Source of the DNA: an uncultured Bacteroidales bacterium
GTDB lineage: Bacteria; Bacteroidota; Bacteroidia; Bacteroidales; Paludibacteraceae
Direction: 5' to 3'
Length of the DNA: 64,000 bases
NCBI GenBank assembly: GCA_946406195.1
Contig: CAMJJT010000005.1
Location: forward strand, 62,010 to 126,009
The translations under genes were made by a program, and so were the position numbers. The first letter of the stretch is position 1, and each line of letters begins with the position of its first letter. Shown here piece after piece: positions 1,830 to 62,570 of this stretch. The notes under the pieces are model-generated. The model made no database searches. It was not told where the DNA came from and was given only the letters and a program-made list of their open reading frames with translations.

Positions 1830-2360
1830 TCAATGCGCCTCTTTGAACCAAAGTACGACATCGCTCTCCAAGGTCCATGAAGGCAAGACGGAAGAGGCGG
1901 TATAACCGGCATTGCGATAGAGCGCCGAGCAGGCTTCGTTACGCGTAGCGATCACCGCATAAATAAGGCGCAGATGAAGAAATCCGAAGGCATATTCTTC
2001 CAGCAAACGCACCGCCTCACGTCCAATTCCTTGCCCTCGGTACTCGGGTGCGATATACATCCCTATCGCGGCACGGCGGTTACGCGGATCCAAATCAAAG
2101 AGGTCAATGCAACCCAATGTCATTGGTAATTGGTCATTGGTCATTGGAGATTGCTCAATGATCAGACGAAGTTGTCCGTCACGGTAGATATCTCCGGTAG
2201 TGGAAGAAATATATTCGCGCAAATCCTGCTGGGAGAGCGGATTATGATTCGCCCCGTCCGCCCAAACGGCAGCATCGTTCTCCCAACGATAGAGATAGGG
2301 CAGATCGGAAGGCTCGAGCTTGCGCAATTTAATTATTTTCGCATTTTCGCATTGTTGCAT
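1830..2360 (-). CDS. GNAT family N-acetyltransferase (RimJ/RimL-like)
   Basis: 176 aa ORF with an ATG start. Acetyl-CoA binding motif RGQGIGREAVRLLEEYAF. Carries an in-frame heptamer-repeat insert (SPMTNDQLPMT). Confidence 0.8.
   Translation of the reverse strand: MQQCENAKIIKLRKLEPSDLPYLYRWENDAAVWADGANHNPLSQQDLREYISSTTGDIYRDGQLRLIIEQSPMTNDQLPMTLGCIDLFDLDPRNRRAAIGMYIAPEYRGQGIGREAVRLLEEYAFGFLHLRLIYAVIATRNEACSALYRNAGYTASSVLPSWTLESDVVLWFKEAH
2120..2147. repeat. 4 x 7 bp tandem repeat (TCATTGG/TAATTGG) inside the GNAT CDS
   Basis: Direct reading: tcattgg taattgg tcattgg tcattgg. Confidence 0.85.
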
Positions 2361-2362
2361 TG

Positions 2363-2785
2363 TTAATCAAAGAGTTTGGCGAAGAAGCCTTTTTTCTTAG
2401 GACGGAGGTCCTCCATATTTCCCTGTGGAGCAGGCTCGAAACAATGCCCTGTATGAATCATGTTATAAATAACTCCCCAATCGGGCAGACCGCCTAAATT
2501 GCGATCATCAATCCACAGGTCCGCTACCAGTTTACGGGCAGGCTTATGCTCGGGTTCCTCCTCCGGATAATTGGAATTAACGGCGTAGAACTCAAGCCCT
2601 TTGGACTTACAATAATCCACGGCCTCTTTCAGCAAATCGCCTTCTCGCACGGTCCAAAGGATAATCTGGTGATGATCCTCCTCCTGCAGTTTTATCAAGG
2701 TCTGGATGGCAAACGGGATGGGTTTACCGATCTTCGGGTACTCATGGGTCACAATCGTACCATCAAAATCACAAGCTATAATCAT
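2363..2785 (-). CDS. HAD-superfamily-like small hydrolase (function unknown)
   Basis: 140 aa ORF. N-terminal MIIACDFDGTIV matches the HAD motif I (DxDGT). Lies 2 nt from the downstream GNAT gene. Confidence 0.6.
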   Translation of the reverse strand: MIIACDFDGTIVTHEYPKIGKPIPFAIQTLIKLQEEDHHQIILWTVREGDLLKEAVDYCKSKGLEFYAVNSNYPEEEPEHKPARKLVADLWIDDRNLGGLPDWGVIYNMIHTGHCFEPAPQGNMEDLRPKKKGFFAKLFD

Positions 2786-2806
2786 TTTATTTTAACATTT
2801 TTTCAT

Positions 2807-3244
2807 TTAGTATGTGGGGATGTTCGGGTCTTCCGGGGTCATTTCCTGCTCCATCTTACCGAGGGTGGGTTTTGTGAAATACCAAGCCACCGCGCTGATA
2901 GCAGCCACCCAAATCATGGGACGATAGCAGCCGAGCAGAAAATAGATCAAAATAGCAGGGATCATGTTACCGCCCACAATAAAGATACGAACGGCTGCTA
3001 ATTGCTCATATTCGGGAAGAGTTTTCGGTTTCTTCCATTTGATAAGATAGAGCCCCAACGGAATACAAATCAGCGCAGTGATAATAACCGCAAATTGAAG
3101 TACTTGTCCAAGTTGAGAATTCGGGTCGTAGAAATCAAGCAAGCCCTTTGAAACGGCATAGTACATCCCCGTATAAGCCACAATAGCTGCGACCATGAGA
3201 CCGTAATAAATCCAATTCAGATGTCGAATAATTTTCTCTTCCAT
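2807..3244 (-). CDS. Small integral membrane protein (4 predicted TM segments), function unknown
   Basis: ORF 2807..3316 trimmed to the internal ATG at 3242-3244 (MEEKIIRHLNWIYYG...), because the longer form overlaps recR. The protein is strongly hydrophobic. Confidence 0.55.
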   Translation of the reverse strand: MEEKIIRHLNWIYYGLMVAAIVAYTGMYYAVSKGLLDFYDPNSQLGQVLQFAVIITALICIPLGLYLIKWKKPKTLPEYEQLAAVRIFIVGGNMIPAILIYFLLGCYRPMIWVAAISAVAWYFTKPTLGKMEQEMTPEDPNIPTY

Positions 3245-3251
3245 ATACTGT

Positions 3252-3866
3252 TTATCCTTTAAATTCCGTTCGGTTGACGATAGAACGCCCAAGGGTGATC
3301 TCGTCCGTGTATTCAAGCTGGTTACCCACCGCTATACCGCGTGCAATCTGCGAGATCTTGATATCCAATCCGGCGTTCTGTATTCTTCTGTAAATATAGA
3401 AATTGGTGGTGTCGCCCTCCATGGTGGTAGGCAGCGCCAGAATAATCTCCTCCACCTCTCCTTTTGCGAGCCGCTCCATGAGGGAATCGATCTCTATATC
3501 TTTGGGACCGATACCTTCCATCGGGGAGATCACGCCGCCCAGCACATGGTACACACCGGTGTATTGACCTGTATTCTCAATCGACATCACGTCCTGCACG
3601 TTCTCCACGACGCATATCGTCGAATGGTCGCGGCGCGGCGAACCGCAAATAGGACAAATCTCGGTATCGGATATATTATGACATTCGCGGCAATAAACGA
3701 CATCTTTTTTGAGACGCGTGAAGGCATTGGAGAATGCCTCTACCTCTTCGTCCGTTTGACGTAACAGATGCAAGACCAAGCGCAGAGCGGTTCTGCGCCC
3801 TACTCCCGGCAGCGATGCCATCTGGTTGACCGCTTGCTCTAATATGACAGAAGGATAATCACTCAT
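3252..3866 (-). CDS. recR: Recombination protein RecR
   Basis: Helix-hairpin-helix [12 protein letters not shown], zinc finger [16 protein letters not shown], Toprim region. Start taken at the ATG at 3864-3866 (MSDYPSV...), which overlaps the upstream stop as ATGA. Confidence 0.9.
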
Positions 3867-5302: not shown

Positions 5303-5326
5303 AAGTGAGTTTTCAAAAAAACGCTG

Positions 5327-5356
5327 CAAAGTTACGATTTTTTTTGCACATATCAA
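5327..5356 (-). promoter_or_regulatory. Bacteroidota-type promoter (-33 TTG, -7 TAACTTTG) for the RSH-recR operon
   Basis: Minus strand reads ttgatatgtgcaaaaaaaatcg TAACTTTG. The 23 nt from TTG to the -7 box is the same spacing seen at the other promoters in this window. Confidence 0.55.
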
Positions 5357-5374
5357 AATTTTTTTGTACCTTTG
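5344..5374 (+). promoter_or_regulatory. Divergent Bacteroidota-type promoter (-33 TTG, -7 TACCTTTG) for the 5456..6214 / rsmD unit
   Basis: ttgcacatatcaaaatttttttg TACCTTTG. Shares the near-palindromic core ttgcacatatcaa with the opposite promoter. Confidence 0.55.
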
Positions 5375-5455
5375 CAGCGATTTTCAAAAAATAAGTTACG
5401 AAAATCGTCTAAGAGACGCCAAATTTCAGAAATAAATAAAAAAATTATACCAATA

Positions 5456-6214
5456 ATGAAAACAACAAGACCAATTTTAATTTGTGCGCTTGCTATCGCA
5501 GCTATCGTGATGGCAGTATTCTGCGTACAGAGCGTTACTACTCCTATTAAGTTTGAGGACACACGTGCACAGCGTGAAGTGAGTGTTATCAAGCATTTGG
5601 TAGATCTGCGTACGGCAGAGGTGGAGTACCACCACCAGAAGGGCGTATTCACCGCCAGCATGGATACACTGCTGATGTTTCTCAAGAATGCACCGAAAAA
5701 AGAGGTGCTCAAGGAAGGTAGTTTGACCGATAAGCAGTTGGAGGCAGGTCTGACAGAGCCGAAGGCTGTTAAGATTTTGAATGAGGCGAAGAAGAAAGCG
5801 CTGAAGAAAGGTACGTTCGAGGATAGCGATGCATTATATGCCTATATCTGGGAGAACGACGCCGATGTAAAGAAGAATGGTTTGGCAGGTTTCCGTCGTG
5901 ATACCATCGAGCTGAACATGCTCGCTTCGCTGTACAAAGGTGAGTACGACGAGAACACCATCGATGCAATCGTAGAGATTCCGTTCAGCGATGGAAAACG
6001 CTTTGAGGTAGAGGTGAACAATGATTATAAGACCAGCCAAGGAATCCGCGTTCCGCTGTTTGAGGCTCGCGCTCCGTTCGAGAGCTATCTGAGCGACCTG
6101 AACGAGCAGGAGTTGGTGAACCTCATTGACCGCGAGACCAAGCTCGACCACTATGCAGGTCTGAAGGTAGGTGATATCTACGCACCGAACAACAACGCCG
6201 GTAACTGGGAATAA
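5456..6214 (+). CDS. Membrane-anchored hypothetical protein (single N-terminal TM)
   Basis: ORF 5372..6214 trimmed to the ATG at 5456 (MKTTRPILICALAIAAIVMAVFCV). I recognise no catalytic motif. Confidence 0.55.
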   Translation: MKTTRPILICALAIAAIVMAVFCVQSVTTPIKFEDTRAQREVSVIKHLVDLRTAEVEYHHQKGVFTASMDTLLMFLKNAPKKEVLKEGSLTDKQLEAGLTEPKAVKILNEAKKKALKKGTFEDSDALYAYIWENDADVKKNGLAGFRRDTIELNMLASLYKGEYDENTIDAIVEIPFSDGKRFEVEVNNDYKTSQGIRVPLFEARAPFESYLSDLNEQELVNLIDRETKLDHYAGLKVGDIYAPNNNAGNWE

Positions 6215-6247
6215 TTGATAATTGAGAATTGACAATTGAGAATTATT
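6213..6247. repeat. 5 x 7 bp tandem repeat (AATTGAN) spanning the stop of the upstream gene and the start codon of rsmD
   Basis: aattgat aattgag aattgac aattgag aattatt. Confidence 0.85.
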
Positions 6248-8838: not shown

Positions 8839-8866
8839 TTGAGATTTCAAATTTACAGGTTATGAA

Positions 8867-9766
8867 TTAGAATAATTTCGCAGGGTATTCGCCTTTCGCA
8901 ATGAGTTGGTTGATCTTCATTACCACTTGCGGACGATCCTCGGCATACGTGACTCCAAACCACTTGGAGGGCGTATCGAGCACTTTGCAGGTAGCCTTTC
9001 CCGCGACGATGAGATCGTTCACGAGCGTCGGGATATAATATTCGGATTTGAGTTCCTGTCCGCGCTTAAGAAGGAAATCGGTGAATCCCTCTTCGGAGTA
9101 TTGGAAATACTCAGGAGTGAAGCCCCACATATTCATCGAGACGGGAGTATGCGGCTCAAGCGGAGTGTCGATACCCTCTTCGGTAAAGACGATCTGCCCG
9201 TTCTTGTCCTCAATCTTCGTGCGCTCCACAACGTCTGTAAGCAGCCCGTTCTCATCGGTCGAACAAACACCACGACTAACGGCGCCATTCTCGCTGAGCG
9301 TGTTGCATACACGATACCCCACCATGCAATACTTCCCTTGCGTACCCTCTACGGAGCGGAGATAATCCGCCAGCACTTGGAACGACTCCTTGCCGTAGAA
9401 ATCATCGGCATTGATGACAGCGAAAGGCTCATGGATGAGGTCTTTTCCCATTAGCACAGCGTGATTGGTGCCCCAAGGTTTCGCACGCTCAGGGTTATAG
9501 GTGCAACCTGCCGGCACTTTGTCGATAGACTGGAAACACACTTCGCAGGGCACTTTGTCCTCGTATTTGGAGAGCACTTTCTCACGGAAATCCGCCTCAA
9601 AATCCTTACGGATAACAAACACGATCTTCCCAAATCCCGCGCGCAGCGCATCAAAGACGCTGTAGTCCATGATGGTCTCGCCATTGGGGCCAAGTCCATC
9701 TAACTGTTTCAGTCCTCCATAACGGCTACCCATACCGGCAGCCAAAATAAACAATGTTGGTTTCAT
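8867..9766 (-). CDS. Sugar-phosphate nucleotidyltransferase family protein
   Basis: N-terminal LAAGMGSRYGGLKQ (the GxGxR nucleotidyltransferase loop). 299 aa. Same strand as galE and manA. Confidence 0.75.
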   Translation of the reverse strand: MKPTLFILAAGMGSRYGGLKQLDGLGPNGETIMDYSVFDALRAGFGKIVFVIRKDFEADFREKVLSKYEDKVPCEVCFQSIDKVPAGCTYNPERAKPWGTNHAVLMGKDLIHEPFAVINADDFYGKESFQVLADYLRSVEGTQGKYCMVGYRVCNTLSENGAVSRGVCSTDENGLLTDVVERTKIEDKNGQIVFTEEGIDTPLEPHTPVSMNMWGFTPEYFQYSEEGFTDFLLKRGQELKSEYYIPTLVNDLIVAGKATCKVLDTPSKWFGVTYAEDRPQVVMKINQLIAKGEYPAKLF

Positions 9767-9782
9767 ATAATAGATACTTTTT

Positions 9783-9815
9783 ATTGACGATTTGACGATT
9801 GACGATTGGTCGATT
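9783..9815. repeat. 4-5 x 7-8 bp tandem repeat (ATTGACG/ATTGGTCG family) in the spacer between the YitT-like gene and the nucleotidyltransferase gene
   Basis: attgacg atttgacg attgacg attggtcg attt. Ends on the stop codon at 9815-9817. Confidence 0.85.
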
Positions 9816-10921
9816 TATTCGGTGACGGCTTCGACTTTGCCGTGAATTTTCTTGTGTCTGATCCAAAGACCATACACCTCGGAGCAGTTTCCGGCGGTGA
9901 TAAAGGCTTGGATCTTGTTCTCGCGGATGAACGCCATGACGGACGAGAACTCGTCTTGGGTCAGCAGGGATTGGATCTCTATATGTTCCTCTCCGCTGTA
10001 ACCGCCTTTTACATTGTATAATGAACACCCGCGCACGAGATCTTCCACGATATACTTACGGATTCGTTCAGGTTCGTTAGAGACGATGCAGACACGTTTG
10101 CGCTTATTGATGGCGGCGGTGAAATAATCGATTGCCAGACCGTTGATCCATGTACCGAGCAGACCGATGACCACCACGCGGAAGTCATTGATTAAGAAGG
10201 CAGTACAGCAGATGATCACACCGCCGATAGCGACCGAAGTACCGATATCAAAATGGAGGTACTTATTCACGATCTTACCCAAAATATCCAGACCTCCGGT
10301 GGAGGCATTGATGCGGAACATCGTAGCCTGACAAATACTGAGCAAGAGCACAAAACAGATGAGGTCAAACCAAAGGTCGCCCATCCCGAGACCGCCACTC
10401 ATGACGCTGTCCCGTACTTGTTCCAACACTTCGCCAGAACGGCTCAGCAGATAAGGGTTATTATGCGCATCGAGGACCGTCTGCCCTGCCTGCAGTTGGG
10501 CAAGGATATCCGGGTTCTCAATCACTTTATGGGTCAAGTTGGTATAAGGATAAATGCGGTCCCAAACTTGAGTAAGCGGACCTAAGATCATCGCCGTATA
10601 GACGGTCTTGGCGCCGAACTCATTGCCAATCAGCACAAAAGCGAGGAGCAAGAGGAAGGCATTGATACCCATTACCCAGTAGGAGAAAGTGTCCGCTGTT
10701 CCTCCGCAGAGTGTGTTGAGCACGATCGAGAGACCGGAGATTGAACCTACAATCAGATGACTTGGAATCAGGAAATAATAGACGGCTGCCGCTCCAAAAC
10801 TCATACCGACCGTCATGAAAAACAATTCACGCCAAAACTTCTTTGTGCGCATTGCTTGCCAGAACGTGCGACCCAAATCGTACCAATATTCTGCACTTAC
10901 AAATTGTTTGAGATGATCCAT
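9815..10921 (-). CDS. YitT-family membrane protein (DUF161 + DUF2179)
   Basis: 368 aa polytopic ORF with GGLDILGKIV and a C-terminal soluble domain (SLYNVKGGYSGEE...). Confidence 0.75.
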   Translation of the reverse strand: MDHLKQFVSAEYWYDLGRTFWQAMRTKKFWRELFFMTVGMSFGAAAVYYFLIPSHLIVGSISGLSIVLNTLCGGTADTFSYWVMGINAFLLLLAFVLIGNEFGAKTVYTAMILGPLTQVWDRIYPYTNLTHKVIENPDILAQLQAGQTVLDAHNNPYLLSRSGEVLEQVRDSVMSGGLGMGDLWFDLICFVLLLSICQATMFRINASTGGLDILGKIVNKYLHFDIGTSVAIGGVIICCTAFLINDFRVVVIGLLGTWINGLAIDYFTAAINKRKRVCIVSNEPERIRKYIVEDLVRGCSLYNVKGGYSGEEHIEIQSLLTQDEFSSVMAFIRENKIQAFITAGNCSEVYGLWIRHKKIHGKVEAVTE

Positions 10922-12187: not shown

Positions 12188-12190
12188 CAG

Positions 12191-12211
12191 TATTCAGCAT
12201 TCAGAGATTCG
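12191..12211. repeat. 3 x 7 bp tandem repeat (NATTCAG) spanning the ribH stop codon
   Basis: tattcag cattcag agattcg. Confidence 0.6.
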
Positions 12212-13883: not shown

Positions 13884-14030
13884 ATTTATTAGTGTTTTGA
13901 TAGGTGTTGCATAGGACTTTACCCCGAGATTCCCCCGATCCGATTCTCTCTCGATAGTGTCTCGCTAGTCTGATTTGGCTATACAACCCTTAATGTCAGG
14001 CAACAAAATCCTCTTATTGGAAATCGATTG

Positions 14031-14061
14031 CAAAGGTACAAAAAAAATCCCACATATGCAA
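14031..14061 (-). promoter_or_regulatory. Promoter (-33 TTG, -7 TACCTTTG), about 140 nt upstream of the 13596..13883 ORF
   Basis: Minus strand reads ttgcatatgtgggattttttttg TACCTTTG. Confidence 0.5.
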
Positions 14062-14080
14062 ATATATGCGGGAGTTTTTT
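14041..14080. terminator. Bidirectional hairpin terminator downstream of the 14103..14780 gene
   Basis: tcccacatat-gcaaat-atatgcggga (one mismatch), flanked by an A-run and a T-run. Confidence 0.45.
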
Positions 14081-14102
14081 GCAGTTTTTGATCTTTTTCG
14101 TG

Positions 14103-14780
14103 CTATTTTATTTCCTGGCCGGTGAGGGTGTAAGTACGATCGGCGTTTTCTATACGCACCTGGTCGTTTTGGAGCACCTTACGAGCAGATTTACGAGGAA
14201 CAGAAGGAGCTACCACATCTAGAAACTCACCATTACCAGGGAGAGAATAGACGTAATATCTTTCTTTTGTTTCCGGAATATAATCATCTCCCATATTGTA
14301 CAGATACTCATGAATAATTAATTTCCACTTACCATTTATAGTCATCAAGCCAAAACTATAATCGGAATCTTGTAAATCACTTACTAATTCTCCATCCTCA
14401 TTATACACAGAGATATGTGAATTTACATATTTTATGAATGTCACCTTTCCATCCGTTGTGAAGATATTTCGCGTAAACATACAGAAAGCATAATCCGGCG
14501 ATCCTTTAAGTGCAGCTGGAGCTTTGCGCGCGGGAGCAGAGGGCGAAGGAGTATTAGAAGAATGCGCGAAACGAATTGATTTATACAACGACATATCATC
14601 GTTATAAAGTTCAATTAAAGTATCTCCATAAACCATAGGTAATTTGCCACAGTCAAAATAATAATCTTCGTATGAAAGCCATTTAGGGAAAGACCCTTCA
14701 AACACTTTCTCCAAATAGATTTGGGCATTGGCAAATGTAGCCGCAAATAGGGCTGCGAGAACAAAGATAGATTTTTTCAT
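14103..14780 (-). CDS. Secreted hypothetical protein (signal peptide, Pro/Ala-rich linker), AT-rich gene
   Basis: MKKSIFVLAALFAATFANAQ signal peptide. The lines I counted in the gene body are about 27-35% GC, against about 50% in the flanks. Confidence 0.55.
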   Translation of the reverse strand: MKKSIFVLAALFAATFANAQIYLEKVFEGSFPKWLSYEDYYFDCGKLPMVYGDTLIELYNDDMSLYKSIRFAHSSNTPSPSAPARKAPAALKGSPDYAFCMFTRNIFTTDGKVTFIKYVNSHISVYNEDGELVSDLQDSDYSFGLMTINGKWKLIIHEYLYNMGDDYIPETKERYYVYSLPGNGEFLDVVAPSVPRKSARKVLQNDQVRIENADRTYTLTGQEIK

Positions 14781-14805
14781 AATGTTAAATGTATTAAATG
14801 GTTAA
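14781..14805. repeat. 3 x 8-9 bp tandem repeat (NNNGTTAA family) immediately upstream of the 14780 start codon
   Basis: aatgttaa atgtattaa atggttaa. Confidence 0.6.
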
Positions 14806-15009
14806 ACATAAAAATGGACGTTCCTTATCTTTCTTCGAGGCTGTAGGAATTGCCCAAACACCGATAAGTCACGCCCATACATAGTACGGACGCTTGCTGA
14901 CTTATTATTGGTGTTTCTCTTGAACTTCCTACATTCCGAAGAAACCAAATAAACCGCAAACGCGAAAAATCAATATGTCCTTCTGTTTAACGTCGGGAAG
15001 CGACGATGG

Positions 15010-15471: not shown

Positions 15472-15497
15472 AATTGTTACTCAAACCTTTGCGGGTG

Positions 15498-15528
15498 CAA
15501 AGGTACAACAAATTTTGCACATATGCAA
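15498..15528 (-). promoter_or_regulatory. Promoter (-33 TTG, -7 TACCTTTG) for the 15010..15471 gene
   Basis: Minus strand reads ttgcatatgtgcaaaatttgttg TACCTTTG. Confidence 0.55.
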
Positions 15529-15972
15529 ATTTTTGTAAGATTTTTTATAAAAACGGCATCCCGGAACAGCGGAATCACGGAATCCCGAAGAAGAGAGGAG
15601 AGATGGATATTGGGGCTGCGTATGACGCGGATATGCCGAACGCGAGGGGCGAATACGGCGCAGCGGAGGGTTAATGGGAGGGAGCGCCGGCGAAGGGCTA
15701 AACCGCCTATGCCCGAGCCCCTGAGGTAAATGGGCACAAAAAAAGCGTTCGATAACTTTGCTCGAGAAAACTTCCTGAGAATAGGATTTGAGGCCTGCTT
15801 TTTCCTCTGTAATCCGGCCACCTCATCGCTACCCGGGGGTTAGGAATGTAAACTAACCCAATGCACGGGGTCTCGGCGTAGAGTACCGGCACGCCATTAG
15901 TGAAGCATTTGCACTCGGTTAATTGTTATTTGTTGAGTTTTCCGGTTCCTATTGTTATCGAACGCTATACTT

Positions 15973-16037
15973 ATTGACGATTGGACGATTGACGATTTAC
16001 GATTTATTGACAACTTATTATTATTGACGAATTATTA
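15973..16037. repeat. About 65 bp array of 7-8 bp units (ATTGACG/ATTGGACG/ATTTACG), just downstream of and running into the stop codon of the beta-barrel gene
   Basis: attgacg attggacg attgacg atttacg atttattgac ... attgacg aattattatta. Same unit family as 9783-9815. Confidence 0.85.
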
Positions 16038-19188: not shown

Positions 19189-19207
19189 CAGCGATTTTTG
19201 TAACATT

Positions 19208-47123: not shown

Positions 47124-47133
47124 AATTCGGGTG

Positions 47134-47164
47134 CAAAGATACAATAAAAAAATGACATATGCAA
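47134..47164 (-). promoter_or_regulatory. Promoter (-7 TATCTTTG) directly upstream of murC
   Basis: Minus strand reads ttgcatatgtcatttttttattg TATCTTTG. Confidence 0.55.
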
Positions 47165-48079: not shown

Positions 48080-48111
48080 GTTATTACGTAATTACGTTAT
48101 TTCGTTAATTA
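48080..48111. repeat. 4 x 8 bp tandem repeat (GTTATTAC/GTAATTAC family) in the ddh-glmS spacer, ending on the glmS stop codon
   Basis: gttattac gtaattac gttatttc gttaatta. Confidence 0.75.
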
Positions 48112-49953: not shown

Positions 49954-49974
49954 ACTGATTTATTATTTGGGTTG

Positions 49975-50005
49975 CAAAATTACTATATTTTTTTGAATTA
50001 TGCAA
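49975..50005 (-). promoter_or_regulatory. Promoter (-7 TAATTTTG) for glmS, overlapping the dapL stop codon
   Basis: Minus strand reads ttgcataattcaaaaaaatatag TAATTTTG. Near-identical to the glnN promoter. Confidence 0.6.
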
Positions 50006-51161
50006 GCGTTTTCATTCTTTTTAGTGCTTCTTCGACTTCTTTTCTATTGGAGAAGGCCGAAAAACGCACAAATCCTTGTCCTGCATCACCAAAACCGACA
50101 CCGGGTGTACAGACGACCTGGCATTGGTTGAGCAAGCAATCGAAGAACGCCCATGAGTCTATATGGCCGGGCGTCTTGCACCATATATAGGGTGCGTTTG
50201 CGCCGCCATAGACCGTATATCCTAATGAACGCAAGCCTTCCGAGAGGATGCGAGCCGTCTGTTTGTAATAGTTCAGATTCGCTTGAATACCGGTTTTTCC
50301 TTCGGGTGTATAGGTAGCCAATGCGGCGCGTTGGGCAATATAGGAAGCGCCGTTGAATTTGGTGCACTGTCTGCGCGACCACATAGCCTGCAGTCCCGTT
50401 GCTTTCGGCAAGACCGTATAACCGCACCGCACCGCCGTAAAACCGGCCGTCTTACTGAAACTACGAATCTCTATAGCTACCTCATCTGCGCCTTCTATCT
50501 CATAAATAGAATGCGGTATATCCGGGTCTTCTATAAAGGCCTCATACGCGGCATCAAAGAGGATGATGCTATGGTTCGTACAGGCATATTCAACCCACCG
50601 CGCTAACTCGTCCCGCGTCAGCACCGTACCGGTAGGGTTATTCGGAAAACAGAGGTATATGATATCGGCTTTTTGTGCAGGCAGATCTGGATAGAAATTA
50701 TTCTGCTCCAAACACGGCAGCCAGACGATTTCTCTTCCGGCCATGCGATTCGTATCCACATAAGCGGGATATGAAGGTTCTAAGATCGCGACGGTATTGG
50801 CTGTATCGAACAGTTCACTCAGGTTACCCAGGTCACTGCCTGCTCCGTCACTGATGAAGACCTCTTCGGGTGTGAGATGGATACCGCGCGGTACGTAGTC
50901 GCTGTCAATGATCGCTTGTCGCAGCCAATGATAGCCCTCTTCTGGACCATAGCCGCGGAAGGTCTCCACATGCGCCAGTTCGTCCACGGCACGATGCATC
51001 GCATCGATGATGACCGATGGTAAAGGCAGCGTGACATCGCCTATGCCAAGACGCAGGACGTGCGCCTCAGGATGGACTTGCTGATAAGCCTGCGTGCGAT
51101 TCGCTATCTCAGTAAAGAGATAATTGTCCTTTAACTGTTGTAAATGCGTATTAATTTGCAT
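49998..51161 (-). CDS. dapL: LL-diaminopimelate aminotransferase
   Basis: LKDNYLFTEIA, LGIGDVTLPLP, NNPTG, SFSKTAGFTAVRCGY (PLP lysine). Confidence 0.85.
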   Translation of the reverse strand: MQINTHLQQLKDNYLFTEIANRTQAYQQVHPEAHVLRLGIGDVTLPLPSVIIDAMHRAVDELAHVETFRGYGPEEGYHWLRQAIIDSDYVPRGIHLTPEEVFISDGAGSDLGNLSELFDTANTVAILEPSYPAYVDTNRMAGREIVWLPCLEQNNFYPDLPAQKADIIYLCFPNNPTGTVLTRDELARWVEYACTNHSIILFDAAYEAFIEDPDIPHSIYEIEGADEVAIEIRSFSKTAGFTAVRCGYTVLPKATGLQAMWSRRQCTKFNGASYIAQRAALATYTPEGKTGIQANLNYYKQTARILSEGLRSLGYTVYGGANAPYIWCKTPGHIDSWAFFDCLLNQCQVVCTPGVGFGDAGQGFVRFSAFSNRKEVEEALKRMKTLA

Positions 51162-55726: not shown

Positions 55727-55778
55727 ACTTTTGACGTTATTTTTCGTTTTTAATCCGATTAAATTTTAAAATCGACCG

Positions 55779-55809
55779 CAAAATTACTATATTTTTTTGA
55801 TATATGCAA
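55779..55809 (-). promoter_or_regulatory. Promoter (-7 TAATTTTG) for the glnN-pyrG-dapF-dapL chain
   Basis: Minus strand reads ttgcatatatcaaaaaaatatag TAATTTTG. Confidence 0.6.
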
Positions 55810-55819
55810 ATATTTCAAC

Positions 55820-55867: not shown

Positions 55868-57148
55868 TTACTGCAGGCAGTTGTCCAACGCCGCTTTGAG
55901 GGCTTGTTTATCCAGATGCTGCCCGATAAAGACCAGTTTCTGCATTCTGTCTCCGTATTGCTCATCCCAGTCTTTGCGCAACTGGGCATCGTCCGCCATG
56001 AGTTGCATGAGCTCCTCCTTCGGCATGGTAGCAAACCACTCTCCGGCCTTGCGGAGGTTGAATTGCCGTCCTGCCTGCTCAAAGAGATAACACATGTCGT
56101 ACTCCTCGGCAAAATAACACATTCCTTTGCACCGAAGCACGTTCTTAGGCCAATGAGCCGCCACGAACTCATCAAAGAGCCCGAGGTCGAAAGGCTTGCG
56201 CGCGTAATATACAAAGGTGTCAATACTAAACTCCGCAAGGTGATCGTGATCTTCGTGATCATGATCATGGTGGTGATGATGCTCATGGCCTTCGTGTTCG
56301 TGCTCGCAGGATCCATGTTCATGGTCGCAATGCGAGTGATCGTGCTCATCCTCATCGTCGTCATCGTCCCTTGTTCCTTGTACATTGTCCCCGTGTCCTT
56401 CCTCATGGTGTCTCGCATCCTCAACCTCCTGTATCCATTTGGCGGAAGTAGCCGTGCGGTCGAAGTCAAAAAGCTTCGTATTCAGCAGTTTATCAAGGTC
56501 CACATCGCAATAATTGGTCTCGATGATCTCAGCCGTCGGCTGGATACCACGAATAATCGCTTTGATGCGGGCAAGCTCTTCTGCACTCACCTCGGCGGCC
56601 TTGTTGAGCAAGATCATATTGCTAAACTCAATCTGCTCGATAACCAAAGCGGCAAGGTCTTCCTCTTTGGGAACATAATGGGCCAGTGCATCACCTTGAT
56701 CGAACTCATCGCGGAGCCGCAGCGCATCAACAACCGAGCAGATACAATCGAGCACAGGCAACCCATCGGTAGCAAACTGCGGAACCATCTGTGCGTACGA
56801 ACAAAGCGTCTGCGCAATCGGAGCGGGTTCACAGATACCCGAAGCCTCGATGACGATGTAATCAAAAGCTTTCTGGGCGCACAAATCATGAAGCTGCGTG
56901 ATGAGGTCGGTCTGCAAAGTGCAGCAGATACAACCGTTCTGCAATGACACGAGCGAATCGTCCTTCTGGCTCACCACTCCTCCCTGCTGAATCAACGACG
57001 CATCGATATTCACCTCGCCGATATCATTGACAATAACGGCAAAGCGAATACCTTTCTTATTCGTCAGGATGCGGTTCAACAAAGTCGTCTTGCCGCTTCC
57101 CAAGTATCCGGTGATTAATAGCACCGGAATCTTATTTACACTTATCAT
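55868..57148 (-). CDS. COG0523 / CobW-family G3E GTPase metallochaperone with a His/Asp-rich insert
   Basis: ITGYLGSGKTTLLN P-loop, GCICC metal motif, and HHEEGHGD...HDHSHCDHEHGSCEHEHEGHEHHHHHDHDHEDHDH. Confidence 0.85.
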   Translation of the reverse strand: MISVNKIPVLLITGYLGSGKTTLLNRILTNKKGIRFAVIVNDIGEVNIDASLIQQGGVVSQKDDSLVSLQNGCICCTLQTDLITQLHDLCAQKAFDYIVIEASGICEPAPIAQTLCSYAQMVPQFATDGLPVLDCICSVVDALRLRDEFDQGDALAHYVPKEEDLAALVIEQIEFSNMILLNKAAEVSAEELARIKAIIRGIQPTAEIIETNYCDVDLDKLLNTKLFDFDRTATSAKWIQEVEDARHHEEGHGDNVQGTRDDDDDEDEHDHSHCDHEHGSCEHEHEGHEHHHHHDHDHEDHDHLAEFSIDTFVYYARKPFDLGLFDEFVAAHWPKNVLRCKGMCYFAEEYDMCYLFEQAGRQFNLRKAGEWFATMPKEELMQLMADDAQLRKDWDEQYGDRMQKLVFIGQHLDKQALKAALDNCLQ

Positions 57149-57188
57149 TCGTAATTTGTAATTCGTAATTCGTAATTCGCAATTTTAT
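57147..57188. repeat. 6 x 7 bp tandem repeat (ATTCGTA family) spanning the COG0523 start codon and the DUF2723 stop codon
   Basis: attcgta atttgta attcgta attcgta attcgca attttat. Confidence 0.9.
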
Positions 57189-60100
57189 TTCGCGTACGCA
57201 GCGTAATCCGCGTAGTACTTATCCACTAACGCCGTTTCGCCGTAACGCTCACATGTCTGGAGAACATATCCGAGGATAGCGGCTTCGCGTCCGGTCGTGG
57301 ATTCCATCAGCGCACGTTGACGACGACTCAGCGACGCCGCAAAATGCAGATACTCAACGCACGTGTTGGCCACATTATCCATAATTGCCACCGCCTTCTC
57401 GTTCTGTTTGAGCAGGAAATAGAGCTGTCCCATCGAAGCGGATGTGTAGTCGTACGGAATATTGTATCCGGGCAGTTGTTCCTCGGCAAAATCGAGCACT
57501 TCCAGCGCTTTGTCGCGTTGGTTCTCGCGAACCAGCTGTTCCGCCAACTGCGCAAACATCATCCGGTGTGTGCGGCACATCCGCATCAGGTTCTCGTCGA
57601 TATAGATACCCGGTTTGTTCATGTTGCCGTATTGGAACTTATGCATCATGTTCTCGTACATCACCTCCGTATTAACGCGCGGTTGTCCGTCGCGGCTGCG
57701 CGTCGGTGTGATGCGATAAGCGAGACCCGTGAGCTCCATGTATGGCTCCAGACCAAGGTAATAATCATTGCCCACAGTAGCGCAGAAATACATCGGGCGC
57801 TGCCATTTATTCGTGGACAACATCTCCATGATCATCATCTCCGAACGGGTGTACATTCGTTTTTTCTTCAAGAAGATCTGCTCGCCATCCGGCGTCTCTA
57901 CGTACAACTGGTCGGAAGGCAGGTAGTTATCGCCTTCGCGCGTCTTGGTCCGCGGATCATCCGAACGCAGGAAATTGAACGCTTTCTCCACCGAAATCGG
58001 CTGACCAAGCTTGTTATCCACACGCGCAATCTCATTCGCACCCGGCATAAAATCCTTGTACTCCCAAGAAATGGGCAGCGCAACGGACTCATAATACGGT
58101 CTCTTCATCTGGCTAATATACCAATCCGTCTGGAGATAACTCAGGTTGCACACACGCAGGTCGGTTCCTACTTCCTCCACCTCTTGGTTGTACCAAAGCG
58201 GGAAAGTGTCGTTATCGCCGTTCGAGAAAAGGATCGCTTGCGTCTCGCAGGATTTCAGGTAGTTAGCTCCGAAATCGCGGCACGAGTAACGATTCGAACG
58301 ATCATGATCGTCCCAGTTCTGCTGCGCCATCAATGCCGGCACACCCAGACACACAACAGACACAACGACAGCTACGGTATTTTTAACGACTTTCGACCAA
58401 CGACCATCGACCAACGACTGATTGATCCAATCAATGATACCCAACACGCCCAGACCAATCCAGATACAGAACGCATAGAACGAACCGGCGTACGCGTAAT
58501 CTCGTTCACGTGGCTGGAAAGGCGTCTGGTTGAGGTAAATGACAATCGCCAGACCCGTTAGGAAGAACAGCAGGAAAGTCAGCGTAAAGCTCTCCCAACC
58601 TTTCGCTTTGCCGTCTCCGCTTTTCTTGCTGCATTGCCAAACGATACCGATGATACCTAACAGTAACGGCAGGAAATAATAGACGTTATGTCCCTTATTC
58701 TCTTTGAGTTCCGTAGGCAACAACGATTGGTCACCAAGCATCGCATTGTCGATAAACGGAATACCGGAAATCCAGTTACCCTTGGTAATATCGCCGTACG
58801 ACTGCAGGTCGTTCTGACGTCCCACGAAGTTCCACATGAAATAGCGCCAATACATGAAATTGACTTGGTACCGGAAGAAGAACCGCATATTCTCCGCAAA
58901 GGTCGGACAGTACTCCGTTTTCTGCTGACCACAGTAGTCGTACCGCACACGTTTGCCTTTCACATTCGCCCATTCCTTATAAGCGGACACATGGCTTCCC
59001 TGTGACGAATACATTCGCGGAAAAAGCATGCAGAATTGCGGCATGAACTTGTACGACGTCTTGTAACCCGTGATCACATAATGGTCTTTCTCTCCTTCTT
59101 TTTTAGGAGCCGGCGCATACTGCGCGTGACCCTGATTTTCCACAGGAACACACATGTTGCCTTCTATCCGCAGCTCCACCGGCGCGTTGTAGGTCTGCCC
59201 GTAAAAGAGCGGACGGTCGCCATACTGCTCGCGGTTGAGATAATACTTGAGACTGAAGACATTGTCCGGACTGTTCTGATCCATCGGTGTGTCTGCGTTC
59301 GAACGAATCACCAGCGCGGCATATGAGCTGTAACCGATAAGGATTACAGCCAACATAACAACCGATGTGTTTGCCCAACGCCATTCACGCTTTCGGGTGT
59401 ACCAGATCGCCCAAACAATCGCCGCTACCGTCAGAACCAGACATACCCACATTCCCGTGTTGAACGGACATCCGAAACCATTGACAAACGCCAACTCAAA
59501 CCAACCGATCAAGGTCGGGAATCCCGGAATAATACCATACAGGATGACCAGCAAAACCGCGCACGAAGCGAGGAAAGCATAGACAAGACCCTTCCACGAA
59601 AACTCGTATTTACGGAAGTAATAAACGAGTCCGATGGCAGGAATCGTCAACAGGTTCAGCAAGTGAACACCGATACTCAAACCCATCAGATAAGCGATGA
59701 GAATAAGCCATTTATCCGATCCTTCTTCATCCGCTTGTTCATCCCATTTGAGGATCAACCAGAACACCACAGCGGTAAACAGAGACGAACTGGCATACAC
59801 CTCGCCTTCAACCGCCGAGAACCAGAAAGTGTCAGAGAACGTGTAAGCCAACGCTCCCACCGTTCCTGCGCCTAAGATTCCGATTCCCTTCCATAAAGGA
59901 AAACTCAACTCTCCACTTTCAACTAGTTTTCTCGCCAGCGCCGTGATCGTCCAGAACAAAAACAGGATCGTGAATGCACTCGCCAGCGCCGACAACGCGT
60001 TGACACACATCGCTACATGAGCCGTGTCCGACGCAAACAGACTAAAGAAACGCCCCATGAGCATAAAGAAAGGTGCTCCGGGCGGGTGTCCAACGTCTAA

Positions 60101-60235: not shown

Positions 60236-60283
60236 TTTATTTTAGTTTTTTTAGTATAGGCACACATTTAGCCAATTTGGGTG

Positions 60284-60313
60284 CAAAGGTACTACAAATA
60301 TTTGGAATTTCAA
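60284..60313 (-). promoter_or_regulatory. Promoter (-7 TACCTTTG) for the DUF2723 / COG0523 unit
   Basis: Minus strand reads ttgaaattccaaatatttgtag TACCTTTG. Confidence 0.5.
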
Positions 60314-60372
60314 AATGGAACATGGAAAATTTGCATATATACGTGTTTTTTTTCAAAAAAGTACGCGCGCGC

Positions 60373-60403
60373 TTGCATATATGAAAAATATGTTGTATCT
60401 TTG
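60373..60403 (+). promoter_or_regulatory. Promoter (-33 TTG, -7 TATCTTTG) for the ugd-like / ugd / flippase unit
   Basis: ttgcatatatgaaaaatatgttg TATCTTTG, flanked by a GC-rich inverted repeat. Confidence 0.55.
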
Positions 60404-60442
60404 CGCGCTTTTTTCGAAAATTTATTAAAATTAATATACAAT

Positions 60443-61198
60443 ATGATTAAAGTTGGAATTATTGGGTGTGGCTTCGTGGGAGGAGCCCTCAAAAACTGGT
60501 TGGAGAACAATAACCCCGAGTGTAAACTGTTCATCAGCGATCCTTACAAAGGATACAACGATGACTTAAGCAACATTGACATCGCTTTCCTGCAAATCCA
60601 TGTGCCTACAGAAGAAGATGGCTCGCAAGATCTGCGACTCATGAAAGAGTTAATCACCAAACTGCCGGACGTGCCTGTCTTTGTCCGCACAACCATCCTG
60701 CCGGGTACCAGCGAAATGCTCACCCGCGAAACCGGACACAATGTCTATTACATGCCGGAGTTCCTCACCGAGCGCACGTTCATCGAGGACTTCAACAAAC
60801 AGACCATGGTCTTCACCGGCGCACAGGACCTGCTCACCAAAATCTTCGTCGGCAAGAAATTTACCGTTATGTCGCCGCTCGAGGCGGAACTCACCAAGTA
60901 CATGCACAATGTCTTCGGCGCCTACAAAGTAACCTATTTCAACGCCTGCAAAGAGTACTGCGAGAAAATGGGAGCCGATTGGCGTAAGGTGCACACCGGT
61001 GTCCTACTCTCCGGTTATATCAACGATACCCATACTTACGTTCCCGGACCGGACGGCAAGTACGGTTACGGCGGTAAATGCTTCCCGAAAGACGTCAACG
61101 CCTTCGCAGAAATGACCAAGGGCACCTCGCTCGGTACCCTGCTTGAGCACCTCCACGAACTCAACGTCCATTTCCGTGGTGTCGAGGAACATATTTAA
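60443..61198 (+). CDS. Truncated UDP-glucose/GDP-mannose dehydrogenase-family protein (NAD-binding and central domains only)
   Basis: ORF trimmed to the ATG at 60443 (MIKVGIIGCGFVGGAL Rossmann motif). Catalytic-type motif YGGKCFPKD. 251 aa, with no C-terminal UDP-sugar-binding domain. Confidence 0.65.
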   Translation: MIKVGIIGCGFVGGALKNWLENNNPECKLFISDPYKGYNDDLSNIDIAFLQIHVPTEEDGSQDLRLMKELITKLPDVPVFVRTTILPGTSEMLTRETGHNVYYMPEFLTERTFIEDFNKQTMVFTGAQDLLTKIFVGKKFTVMSPLEAELTKYMHNVFGAYKVTYFNACKEYCEKMGADWRKVHTGVLLSGYINDTHTYVPGPDGKYGYGGKCFPKDVNAFAEMTKGTSLGTLLEHLHELNVHFRGVEEHI

Positions 61199-61317
61199 TC
61201 CGCATAATTACCATTTTTTAATTTGTTTTAGACAGATTTTTGATTTCCGGTAAGGGAGTTATGGGGTCCATAATGACCGAACCGAAATCTAAAAGATGGC
61301 AAAAGAAATAAAAAATT

Positions 61318-62556
61318 ATGAGAATAGCAGTTGCAGGAACAGGATATGTAGGCCTCAGCATCGCGACCCTTTTGGCCCAGCACAATGATGTGATGGCGGT
61401 GGACATCGTCCCTGAGAAAGTGGAGATGATCAACCGCCGCATCTCGCCCATACAAGACGAGTACATCGAGAAATACCTCGCGGAAAAGGCACTCAATCTC
61501 ACCGCCACACTCGATGCCGAAGCAGCCTACAAGGATGCCGAATACGTGGTTATCGCAGCTCCGACCAACTATGACAGCCAGCGGAACTATTTCGACACAT
61601 CGGCGGTAGAGAATGTCATCGAGACAGTCCTTCGTATCAACCCGCAGGCAATCATGGTCATCAAATCGACCATCCCTGTCGGCTATACTGAGTCCGTCCG
61701 TCGCAAATATAACTGCGACAACATCCTCTTCTCGCCTGAGTTCCTTCGCGAGTCCAAAGCGCTCTACGACAACCTCTACCCTTCCCGTATCATCGTCGGA
61801 ACGGTCAAAGGAGACGAACGCCTCACCAAGGCTGCAGAGCGTTTTGCTGCACTCCTCAAAGAGGGCGCCATCAAAGAGGACATCGAAACCCGTATCATGG
61901 GACTTACCGAAGCCGAAGCGGTCAAACTCTTCGCGAACACCTACCTCGCGCTCCGCGTCAGCTATTTCAACGAACTTGACACCTACGCGGAGATGAAAGG
62001 CCTCAACACCCAGGACATCATCGACGGTGTTTGCCTCGACCCGCGTATCGGCACGCACTATAACAACCCCTCTTTCGGCTACGGCGGTTACTGCCTCCCG
62101 AAGGACACCAAGCAGCTCCTTGCCAACTACCAGGACGTCCCGGAAAACCTCATCGAGGCGATTGTCGAATCCAACCGCACACGCAAGGACTTCATCGCCG
62201 ATCGCGTGCTTGCGAAAGCCGGCTACTACGATTACTACAACAACGGCCAGTTCAACGCCGCCGAAGAGCATCCCTGCGTCATCGGCGTCTATCGCTTGAC
62301 GATGAAGTCGAACTCCGACAACTTCCGTCAGTCCTCCATTCAAGGAATCATGAAGCGTGTCAAAGCGAAAGGTGCGCAAGTGATCATCTACGAACCTACT
62401 CTCGAAGATGGTACCACCTTCTTCGGTTCTCTCGTGGTAAACGACCTCACAGAGTTCAAGAGCCGCAGCCAAGCCATCATTGCAAACCGCTATGACGCTT
62501 CCTTGGATGACGTCCAAGAAAAAGTATATACCCGTGACATCTTCCGCCGCGACTAA
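61318..62556 (+). CDS. ugd: UDP-glucose 6-dehydrogenase
   Basis: [21 protein letters not shown] and [10 protein letters not shown], with a full-length three-domain architecture (412 aa). Confidence 0.92.
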
Positions 62557-62570
62557 CGACCAACGACTAA
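62550..62570. repeat. 3 x 7 bp tandem repeat (CGACTAA/CGACCAA) spanning the ugd stop codon
   Basis: cgactaa cgaccaa cgactaa. Confidence 0.75.

Follow-up and report, generated by a model that had tools for sequence, protein, structure and literature searches.

The stretch of 64,000 nucleotides (nt) analysed here, from an uncultured, rumen-type Bacteroidales bacterium of the Paludibacteraceae (contig CAMJJT010000005.1, positions 62,010 to 126,009; hereafter the window), raises a simple question: why are so many of its gene junctions, and the interiors of several of its genes, made up of short tandem arrays of degenerate 7- or 8-nt units, and why do the same units come back at distant loci? We called tandem arrays with Tandem Repeats Finder (TRF, score ≥30; 54 rows in the window before merging), with 50 dinucleotide-preserving shuffles of the window as controls, and found 21 merged arrays of period 6-9 with at least three copies, versus 0.32 ± 0.51 (maximum 2) in the shuffles, so that head-to-tail units in the 5-11 nt range of long simple-sequence repeats (LSSRs) occur well above chance. 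The arrays comprise 3-5.4 units with 73-96% matches, and they are not assembly artefacts, because independent assemblies (ENA, Logan and JGI) carry identical ones. On balance, we think it probable that they are lineage-specific heptamer microsatellites shaped by slippage, by the filtering action of selection and by the copying of modules between loci.

The data comprise these 64 kb of the host genome and relatives' loci of ±10 kb; the gene map of the window is a codon-usage model checked with Pfam, and genes of the relatives were called with a simple codon model whose start positions are approximate. A type IX secretion system (T9SS) plug domain and other markers put the window in the Bacteroidota, and a genome scan with aspartokinase found the closest sequences in uncultured rumen Bacteroidales/Paludibacteraceae metagenome-assembled genomes (MAGs; 83-89% amino-acid identity), followed by Paludibacter (53%) and other Bacteroidota (~45%). 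Array density per 10 kb is 3.3 in the window, 0.5 to 6.6 in its closest relatives, about 6 in some more distant gut Bacteroidales (L026 and the Candidatus Aphodosoma loci L053 and L055) and ~0 in most Spirosoma, Flavobacteriales and other loci. Period 7 dominates, as in LSSRs, both among 150 arrays from 402 kb of close relatives (88 of period 7, 28 of period 8 and 9 of period 11) and in 840 kb of metagenome contigs (404 of 583 arrays), and the units are diverse, with 86 canonical heptamers among 146 arrays.

A first-pass annotation made from the letters alone had listed 19 heptamer or octamer arrays and one 11-mer array. These are real: TRF recovered the 11-mer array (34388-34442) and 15 of the 19 others (2120, 6213, 9783, 15973, 18617, 24817, 27266, 29479, 30198, 31484, 32296, 43647, 48080, 57147 and 62550), but the remaining four (8839, 12191, 14781 and 30243) are visible only by eye, as 1.5-3 degenerate units below the TRF threshold. 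Against the control it had proposed, dinucleotide shuffling, the arrays are in the large excess reported above, and the unit families it named reappeared as repeat families D6, D7, D9, D10, D18 and I24. It had overlooked two 8-mer arrays (2335 and 15553), a 9-mer (17440), two in-gene 7-mers (19535 and 58385) and a 23-mer (21769). Where it had counted at least five arrays in frame inside genes we found seven, and the sixth that it suspected in lepA (34977-36800) is not there, as this gene lacks a heptamer array even under permissive TRF settings.

Placement, turnover and reading frame

In keeping with that annotation's claim of non-random placement, 12 of the 19 period-7/8 arrays fall in intergenic DNA, which amounts to 7.9% of the window (binomial P = 1.7e-9). 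Most of the intergenic arrays take up an entire 20-40 nt gap between co-directional genes and overlap its stop or start codon (for example 57147-57184, 62550-71, 31485-513, 18617-58, 48080-111 and 43647-67). Across the clade (693 kb), the density of period-7/8 arrays per kb is 0.07 in genes, 1.8 in co-directional gaps (~26-fold that of genes), 2.8 in convergent gaps and 0.45 in divergent gaps; non-triplet units are thus mostly intergenic, as in LSSRs, although the in-gene share in the window (7 of 19) is unusually high for that class. A quarter of the clade's arrays are located within genes. Among 101 co-directional arrays of the clade, the stop codon is reached by 72, the start codon (≤5 nt away) by 54, and both by 45, which thus fill the whole gap. 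Intergenic arrays are A-rich on the sense strand (39% A versus 31% T; A exceeds T in 71 arrays and T exceeds A in 29) and show no sense-strand bias in stop codons, which occur only on the sense strand in 29 and only on the antisense strand in 22.

Two common denominators were considered and rejected. Compared with composition-matched shuffles, array gaps show no deficit of folding (mean z = -0.7; array-free gaps +0.08), and since A/T content alone explains their weak folding, the idea of an unstructured spacer falls away. A single binding motif fares no better: 79 sense-oriented units, taken over all rotations, reach 3.23 bits versus 2.84 ± 0.12 for letter-shuffled units, a consensus that falls short of what one sequence-specific factor would need. 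Regulation by a single factor of this kind is unlikely, given the near lack of a common motif, the highest density in convergent gaps and the poor conservation of arrays at housekeeping junctions.

We aligned orthologous junctions in up to 29 relatives and found that one and the same junction or loop holds, from species to species, different heptamer units, no array at all, or a 16-mer AGACCGCTTCGCTGAC repeat. The outcome that the first-pass annotation had named as telling against its view, conserved non-periodic DNA at these sites in relatives, was not what we saw; the orthologous sites hold other units, or none, with indels. At the ribH/aspartokinase junction nearly every relative has an array, and at least eight different units are used, while in array-less species the distance from stop to start is 1-10 nt. 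In L002, which is 90% identical to the window, the array at 27263 is replaced by a AGACCGCTYCGCT 16-mer repeat and the region of the 29473 array is 12 nt shorter. Between L005 and L006 (98.1% identical) the larger indels (5-8 nt, including 7- and 8-nt ones) all fall within arrays, so that whole-unit copy number varies between related genomes, as it does for LSSRs.

For several arrays a local birth, out of the stop or start context already in place, is plain. The 18620 array (18617-18658, minus strand, sense ATTTAACA ×5, TRF) fills the gap from the stop of an AsnC-family gene to the ATG of trpS; array-less relatives read ATT TAA T ATG at this junction and the window reads ATT TAA CA-ATTTAACG-... 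ATG, with the gene's native end as its first unit; the arrays that L009 and L013 carry here are different ones, each built from its own stop context. The array at 6213-6244 (plus strand, AATTGAG ×4.6), between the stop of gene 5510-6214 and an RsmD-like methyltransferase gene that starts with TTG at 6236, has a unit (AATTGAN) derived from the native rsmD start context A-ATG-AGA-ATT, the start codon now being TTG. Likewise, the first unit of the array CGACTAA CGACCAA CGACTAA (62550-62571, plus strand, TRF), which runs from the stop of a UDP-glucose dehydrogenase gene to the TTG start of the next gene, is the native end CGC GAC TAA.

Over window positions 20219-52510, ERZ12289776 NODE_465 (98.6-99.6% identical) differs from the window in copy number at 0 of 11 arrays, and the 48080 array is identical in four independent assemblies. 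Fast change between species combined with no difference between strains 98.6-100% identical indicates that the arrays are not phase-variation switches. Close relatives also yielded a separate observation: within the PagL-like gene (29939-30013) L001, 99% identical to the window, has a divergent segment that is 36 nt shorter, and the 90% identical L002 matches the window there. L002 is also ~100% identical to the window over 30150-31540, and a 408-aa protein encoded there is identical in the window, L001 and L002. This mosaic suggests recent recombination between lineages.

The seven arrays that lie in frame inside genes of the window (2115, 19535, 24815, 27263, 29473, 32296 and 58385; all called by TRF, host genes named with the help of Pfam) have the following hosts. 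The first (2115-2164, minus strand, sense CAATGAC, TRF period 7/14/21) encodes the peptide ..SPMTNDQLPMT.. in a GNAT acetyltransferase gene (1830-2360), whose loop carries other unit families (at least five overall) or a 16-mer repeat in 11 or more relatives. The second (19535-19559, plus strand, ATTGGAG ×3.6) lies in an O-methyltransferase gene (19208-19837), and the corresponding loop in relatives carries other arrays or a AGCGAAGCGGTCT repeat. On the minus strand, the array at 24815-24861 (sense CCAATCA) encodes PKSPITNDKSPIINNK near the C-terminus of a T9SS plug-domain protein, and that at 27263-27295 (sense TNAAATC) lies in the gene for a 649-aa protein. The PagL-like gene holds AAGGGAC ×5 (29473-29507, plus strand). 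The purest array of the window, GATTTGA ×5.4 with 96% matches (32296-32333, minus strand), encodes ITNLKSQISNLKS in a family-2 glycosyltransferase (GT2) and is identical in the strain contig L001, and the last (58385-58419, minus strand; CGACCAA on the plus strand, sense TTGGTCG) belongs to a TMEM260-like O-mannosyltransferase gene.

Selection filters these arrays. Among in-gene arrays of the clade, 23 have a unit whose stop codon falls on the antisense strand alone, against 1 whose stop falls on the sense strand alone. At 2115 the single unit with a would-be in-frame TGA reads TTA instead, and at 27263 two variant units abolish the stops that a perfect array would have; such repair of in-frame stops by point mutation implies long residence in one frame. 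The peptides encoded by the window's in-gene arrays, such as ITNLKSQISNLKS and PKSPITNDKSPIINNK, are rich in S, T, N, K and Q.

Modules copied between loci

Recurrence of units at distant loci goes well beyond single heptamers. Positions 9781-9807 and 15971-15997 are 96% identical over 27 nt and have the same 7+8+7 structure, irregular units included (family D18); 31485-514 matches the reverse complement of 58384-413 at 90% over 30 nt (family I24), and 18609-31 matches 30235-57 at 91% over 23 nt. Pairs of arrays have a unit family in common in 13.6% of cases within a genome and in 6.3% between genomes, and none of 5000 permutations gave a value as high (P<2e-4).

The ATTGACG family is the one that can be followed furthest. 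In the window its array at 9783-9816 (minus strand, ATTGACG / ATTTGACG / ATTGACG / ATTGGTCG, TRF) begins at the stop of a YitT-family gene (9815-10921) and ends 16 nt before the ATG of gene 8867-9766, with the sense strand reading CGTCAAT as in the start-proximal arm of the dispersed element described below. The 22-nt pattern of sites 9783 and 15973, ATTGACG-ATTKGACG-ATTGACG (scanned as ATTGACGATTKGACGATTGACG), is present as an exact match in at least 120 metagenome contigs, which were selected by this exact 22-mer. Among the matches listed, it occupies 129 sites with 108 distinct contexts on the left flank, and two or three sites, on both strands, occur in several contigs. Overlap with the window at 70-80% identity in three of these contigs shows that the set includes relatives. 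Of the listed sites, 37 lie in genes, and in 36 of these the sense strand is CGTCAAT, giving peptides of the SSIVNRQ type; seven host proteins were confirmed with Pfam (a PglZ response regulator, an M24 peptidase, a BadF ATPase, phosphatidylserine decarboxylase, a ketoacyl synthase (KAS), GSCFA and DUF4886). The 22-mer contigs also carry other families of the window, namely GATTTGA, GTTAAATY, GTSATTG, AATTGAN, ATTCGTA, CGACNAA and the 11-mer.

At 43 of the listed sites the 22-mer extends into a conserved composite element of 130-150 nt, with a near-invariant left arm (ATTGACGATTGGACGATTGACGAGGTACGATTGATTGACGATTGA), a variable centre that sometimes contains small GC hairpins (such as CCGCGAAGCGG) and a right arm of complementary units (AAATCGTAAAT...) that ends 5-15 nt before an ATG. 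The arms, 40-45 nt long and near-invariant in 22 or more different contexts, are ~80% inverted repeats of each other. A profile of the element finds 249 nhmmer matches in 117 metagenome loci and, in the window, 15973-16034 (E = 2.7e-10, profile positions 3-64) and 9783-9818 (E = 5e-4); the former belongs to a one-arm partial copy (15973-16044, minus strand) that lies directly against the stop of gene 16038-17297. Copies scattered over unrelated contexts with their ends conserved are the mark of miniature transposable elements with inverted repeats (MITEs) and repetitive extragenic palindromic (REP) sequences, and the conserved arms around a variable centre suggest, from sequence, a non-autonomous MITE/REP-like element whose solo arms and fragments would appear as simple arrays. 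We also observed two contigs, L135 (8.8 kb) and L132 (6.6 kb), with nine profile matches each, roughly one per kb, whose source genomes must be extremely rich in the element.

Single copies of the composite element fold better than shuffles (z = -1.7 to -5.3) and the consensus structure is weak (-4.1 kcal/mol); 22 copies contain no compensatory pairs, and a selected RNA hairpin is thus not supported. Rfam at gathering thresholds returned only tRNAs, in the window and in five contigs with the element. Carriage by phages was likewise discarded, as neither the 22-mer nor the 16-mer dimer has a match in IMG/VR viral contigs.

A second dispersed family is marked by the 13-mer AGACCGCTTCGCT, which recurs without mismatch at six or more sites that are not orthologous, spread over six loci, where ~0.04 would be expected. 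The window site is a 23-mer ×2.2 (21769-21818, plus strand, TRF) that overlaps the stop of an aminoacyl-tRNA synthetase gene; further sites with this core are at ~4689-4717 in L002, in the GNAT loop of L004, L008 and L017, at 5043-5090 in L009, and at 117 and 1270-1330 in L017. The family usually takes the form of the 16-mer tandem repeat AGACCGCTTCGCTGAC and shares hot spots with the heptamer arrays. Its variants have the centre swapped for small hairpins (GTCC-TGC-GGAC and CAAGC-TTT-GCTTG), and AGCGAAGCGGTCT is what the sense strand reads at the three in-gene sites that were checked, in the genes for GNAT, the O-methyltransferase and the 649-aa protein. The family contains GCGAAGC, which we take to be a very stable DNA mini-hairpin.

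Other arrays and elements

Most of the remaining intergenic arrays of the window repeat the pattern of junction filling. An 8-mer array (ATTTTCGC/ATTGTTGC, 2335-2364, minus strand, TRF) spans the 2363-2785 stop codon together with the GNAT start, and provides the GNAT gene with a new ATG and ~8 additional N-terminal codons; in array-less relatives CAT..TTA are separated by 1-8 nt. Three arrays on the minus strand are weak and were found by eye: TTTGAGA TTTCAAA TTTACAG (8839-8866), from the stop of gene 8867-9766 to the ATG (8838) of an NAD-dependent epimerase gene, a junction at which relatives show either a 1-nt gap or stronger arrays built from other units; CAGTATT CAGCATT CAGA (2.5 units, 12188-12205), from the ribH stop to the aspartokinase ATG; and the sub-threshold 8-9-mers AATGTTAA ATGTATTAA ATGGTTAA (14781-14812), immediately 5' of the ATG of gene 14103-14780. 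TRF called four more minus-strand arrays that bridge a stop and the next ATG: TGGTCGA/TGGTCGT ×3.4 (31485-31513) between the GT2 gene and gene 30255-31481, ATGTTTA ×3 (43647-43667, identical in L203) between ftsA and ftsZ, the 8-mer ATTACGTA ×3.5 (48080-48111) between a glmS-like gene and the diaminopimelate dehydrogenase gene, and ATTCGTA ×5.4 (57147-57184), which is the entire 36-nt gap between the TMEM260-like and CobW-family genes. Three TRF arrays have no assigned strand: ACGGAATC ×4 (8-mer, 15553-15584), in a long intergenic region beside a promoter-like element; TAGCGGGAG ×3.3 (9-mer, 17440-17469), also intergenic; and, in a convergent gap, the GTTAAA-type 8-mers that flank a hairpin at 30198-30258 (GTTTCTTT/AAAGAAAC, TRF and by eye), 17 nt of which match the end of the 18620 array exactly (family D9).

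The 11-mer array, AGCATCCATTG ×5 (34388-34442, plus strand, TRF), lies in an 800-nt non-coding region 5' of lepA, ~80 nt downstream of a -7-box-like TATCTTTGCA. The public contig has no gene between 34166 and 34977, and our codon map calls a short open reading frame at 34696-34977. The surrounding region (34300-34510) has no Rfam match, and a homologue of 118 nt (75% identity, with the same array and flanks) follows a similar promoter in the unrelated contig L175 (~1860-1980); the region is possibly a small RNA or leader that contains the repeat.

A promoter-like family of ~60 nt, in which a palindrome TTTGCATATATGCAAA stands ~20 nt upstream of TTTG-TAccTTTGCA, resembling the Bacteroidetes -33/-7 consensus, is found at 5325-5384, 14016-14084, 15483-15555, 19126-19198, 19833-19892, 20079-20138, 26015-26069, 28784-28843, 34184-34256, 34570-34629, 39347-39406, 47123-47164, 49973-50032, 55761-55817 and 60279-60413. 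Its members precede transcription units on both strands, often as divergent pairs, and the conserved palindrome could be a binding site common to many promoters. A tRNA-Thr (CGT) at 26072-26145, between the divergent T9SS plug and QueH-like genes, is the sole Rfam or ARAGORN match in the window.

In a clade at ~70% amino-acid identity, gaps at the 6213 (L022/L023), ribH (L021) and 2335 (L020/L026) junctions are filled by tandem GC-rich hairpin modules with stable loops (GCCC-TTCG-GGC, GGCG-CAAG-CGCC and CAC-GAAA-GTG) and TATAGGACG-like linkers, a further type of short repeat module at these gene boundaries.

Origin of the arrays and relation to known repeats

On the reading we favour, an array would be born and resized by slipped-strand mispairing in a 7-8 nt register, often starting from the A/T-rich surroundings of a stop or start codon; we propose this step because units contain the native gene end and because indels of 7-8 nt separate near-identical relatives. 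Selection, as the data show, leaves arrays only in intercistronic gaps, at 3' ends and in tolerant protein loops, those in loops having a total length that is a multiple of three and a stop-free orientation, with remaining in-frame stops mutated away. Finally, multi-unit modules would be copied between loci, accounting for the recurring unit families; such copying has taken place for the ATTGACG family and the AGACCGCTTCGCT core, presumably by way of an enzyme or repair pathway. The arrays would act as fast-evolving spacers and loop insertions that turn over between species and are stable between strains, and effects on expression, such as the uncoupling of adjacent cistrons or an A-rich leader for Shine-Dalgarno-independent initiation, would probably be secondary.

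Several observations weigh against this account. One protein loop is targeted in many species by unrelated units, which would call for a putative insertion hot spot or else for replacement at a site where an array has long stood. In large gaps, 9 of 28 arrays lie ≤10 nt from a start and 5 of 28 ≤10 nt from a stop, far above random placement, so a model of purely neutral, tolerated positions is insufficient for the 14 of 28 that hug gene ends. The full composite element is absent from the window, which has only one-arm or fragment copies; its ends show no obvious target-site duplication by inspection; we found no empty/filled pair for it, the part of L164 orthologous to the window lacking the module; and no transposase family appeared among the ~40 of 56 window genes scanned against Pfam. 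Mobility of the element is consequently deduced from its distribution. The number of 22-mer matches would by itself also be compatible with many independent ATTGACG arrays, given selection by pattern; the argument for copying is that conservation extends beyond the selected pattern.

How far could slippage alone carry the explanation? If every array were independent and units recurred through A/T-rich composition and common stop and start contexts, one would understand the arrays at 18620, 6213 and 62550, which clearly come from a native gene end or start, the 7-8 nt indels between close relatives, the 86 canonical heptamers among 146 arrays and the weak overall consensus (3.23 bits). Such a purely local origin is nonetheless unlikely as a general account, and is already contradicted for the ATTGACG and AGACCGCTTCGCT families, by the near-invariant arms of the composite element and their homologue at 15973-16034, by the exact 13-mer at unrelated sites, by the 27-30 nt stretches (90-96% identical, irregular units included) in distant arrays of the window and by the greater sharing of unit families within than between genomes. 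At the other extreme, there is a modest chance that rumen and gut Bacteroidales have a mechanism, so far overlooked, for writing tandem modules of family-specific 7-8 nt units into the chromosome, which may be a tiny non-autonomous mobile element with its mobiliser or a form of templated repair, with gene boundaries and a limited set of in-gene hot spots as preferred sites; the ATTGACG/CGTAAAT inverted-repeat element would then be the full version, of which the simple arrays would be fragments or seeds. A narrower version, in which a dedicated activity such as a reverse transcriptase or a primase-polymerase with a short template heals breaks with 7-8 nt units, would fit the genome-specific dominant families, the occupation of the same sites by different families (including the swap of a heptamer for a 16-mer array within 10% divergence) and the irregular 7/8 alternation within arrays. 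We regard it as very doubtful, since the Pfam-scanned window genes contain no candidate enzyme, locally derived units argue against an external template for many arrays, each genome has many families, and the conserved non-repetitive parts of the composite element exceed a short template.

Two further readings are functional. Arrays adjoining start codons might tune translation of the downstream gene, an idea in keeping with the 54 of 101 co-directional arrays that end ≤5 nt from a start and the 9 of 28 close to one in large gaps, with the A-rich sense strand, with the constant 5-15 nt between composite element and ATG, and with the 6213 array, whose unit (TAATTGA) is one mismatch from TAACTGA in forward orientation 5' of a start (PMC4679880). 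This explanation is not the one we would expect to hold, as the arrays have no common motif, convergent 3'-3' gaps are the densest, a quarter of arrays lie in genes and array gaps are not less structured than shuffles; moreover, close relatives have no array or an unrelated unit at the same housekeeping-operon junction, so that no conserved regulatory requirement is evident. The first-pass annotation had drawn an analogy to the contingency loci of Haemophilus, Neisseria and Campylobacter, hypermutable tracts that switch or modulate genes, especially surface-related ones. Heptamer tracts reportedly control HMW adhesin expression in Haemophilus, and the window too has short tandem repeats in or beside genes, some of them envelope-related (GT2, PagL, T9SS plug and O-mannosyltransferase), where gain or loss of one non-triplet unit would shift the frame. 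The analogy does not survive the comparison of strains, in which none of the 11 arrays differed and the 48080 array was the same in four assemblies; and in place of long near-perfect tracts at surface genes we found short, imperfect ones of 3-5.4 units, with in-frame stops repaired by point mutation and many sites between housekeeping genes (ftsA-ftsZ, ribH-ask and trpS). We consider a contingency role highly improbable.

The window arrays belong to a known and poorly understood class, the heptameric simple-sequence repeats, which takes in Mrazek's LSSRs, repeats of Xanthomonas and Nostoc, the short tandemly repeated repetitive (STRR) sequences of cyanobacteria and the TAACTGA repeats (PMC4679880, PMC4692102, PMC6749651). 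LSSRs are described by Mrazek et al. (2007), as reported in PMC4679880 and PMC4692102, as tandem 7-nt units above chance, mostly intergenic and sporadic in phylogeny; these two accounts give their function as not known and polymerase slippage as the proposed origin. Xanthomonas and Nostoc have GGGNATC repeats, and in Xanthomonas the same genes flank repeats that vary in length and sequence between related species (PMC4692102). The window arrays resemble LSSRs in being heptamer-dominated, mostly intergenic, sporadic in their lineage and variable at the same junction. They depart from them in having many unit families per genome, A/T-rich rather than G-rich, in lying for a third in frame within genes although the period is not a multiple of three, in typically making up the whole intercistronic gap, and in the tie of one family to a composite inverted-repeat element.

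The TAACTGA repeats were reported by MacGregor (2015, PMC4679880) beside start codons in marine Beggiatoaceae, cyanobacteria and five Bacteroidetes, including Paludibacter propionicigenes, so the belief of the first-pass annotation that such heptamers were undescribed in Bacteroidota does not stand; horizontal or dispersive spread was suspected there and no mechanism found. Like these repeats, which come in sets of 2-6 copies, our arrays are short, intergenic, often a few nt from a start codon and occasionally in genes. Unlike them, they use dozens of units with no common motif instead of one unit, and are as frequent beside stops and at convergent 3' ends as they are beside starts. The window has no TAACTGA dimer within one mismatch per unit except TAATTGA at 6212, and among the relatives' loci the only true array is in L057, a Flavobacteriales MAG, with a perfect TAACTGA ×5 (9900-9934) ~70 nt upstream of the aspartokinase gene.

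STRRs, known from Calothrix and Anabaena as cited in PMC4692102, provide another parallel. As there, several tandem heptamer families are dispersed through the non-coding DNA of one genome, so the likeness drawn by the first-pass annotation is apt as an analogy, but the host is of another phylum, there is no evidence of homology, and STRRs are not known as in-frame gene insertions. In heterocystous cyanobacteria the STRR heptamer units are CCCCAGT, TTGGTCA and CAACAGT. The unit GTCATTG of the array at 2119 is a rotation of TTGGTCA, which we assume to be STRR2. As to the dispersing process which that annotation had drawn from recurrence of units, it holds for the ATTGACG family, whose copying is seen in the 22-mer, the composite element and family sharing, but local birth had been given too little weight.

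Rickettsia palindromic elements (RPEs) are palindromic repeats of ~150 bp that insert in frame in unrelated genes and add a conserved peptide (review, PMC10969869). CGTCAAT modules likewise lie in frame in unrelated genes (PglZ, M24 peptidase and phosphatidylserine decarboxylase, among others) and give SSIVNRQ-type peptides, and the composite element, with its conserved inverted arms on either side of a variable centre, recalls RPEs and the other MITEs that lie inside genes; unlike RPEs (~100-150 bp palindromes), the in-gene insertions here are direct heptamer arrays of 22-90 nt. REPs, with the bacterial interspersed mosaic elements (BIMEs) and REP doublets (REPINs) they form, are short extragenic repeats mobilised by REP-associated tyrosine transposases (RAYTs), present in hundreds of copies that favour intercistronic and 3' regions and are few in divergent promoter regions, either solo or in inverted doublets able to form hairpins. 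The repeats described here are similarly concentrated in intercistronic and 3' regions, scarce in divergent gaps, and found in solo and inverted-arm forms. Where REPs are single imperfect palindromes of ~20-40 nt, however, our arrays are tandem heptamers without covariation for a selected hairpin.

Bacterial heptamer microsatellites have been noted in scattered lineages since 1990 with their origin and function unexplained, and the sister species described here, which range from array-poor to array-rich, could reveal by comparison the replication, repair or mobility gene responsible. The repeatedly targeted junctions are natural replicates, and one family has a composite form in more than 100 contexts. 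If a writing mechanism of the kind considered above exists, it would continually remodel intercistronic spacers and add peptide loops to conserved proteins. For the annotation of rumen MAGs the arrays matter because start and stop codons arise within them and enzymes gain low-complexity peptide insertions. As many intercistronic spacers are made wholly of arrays, this lineage could inform on operon translation in the Shine-Dalgarno-poor Bacteroidota, and in it non-triplet repeats are routinely domesticated as in-frame protein loops.

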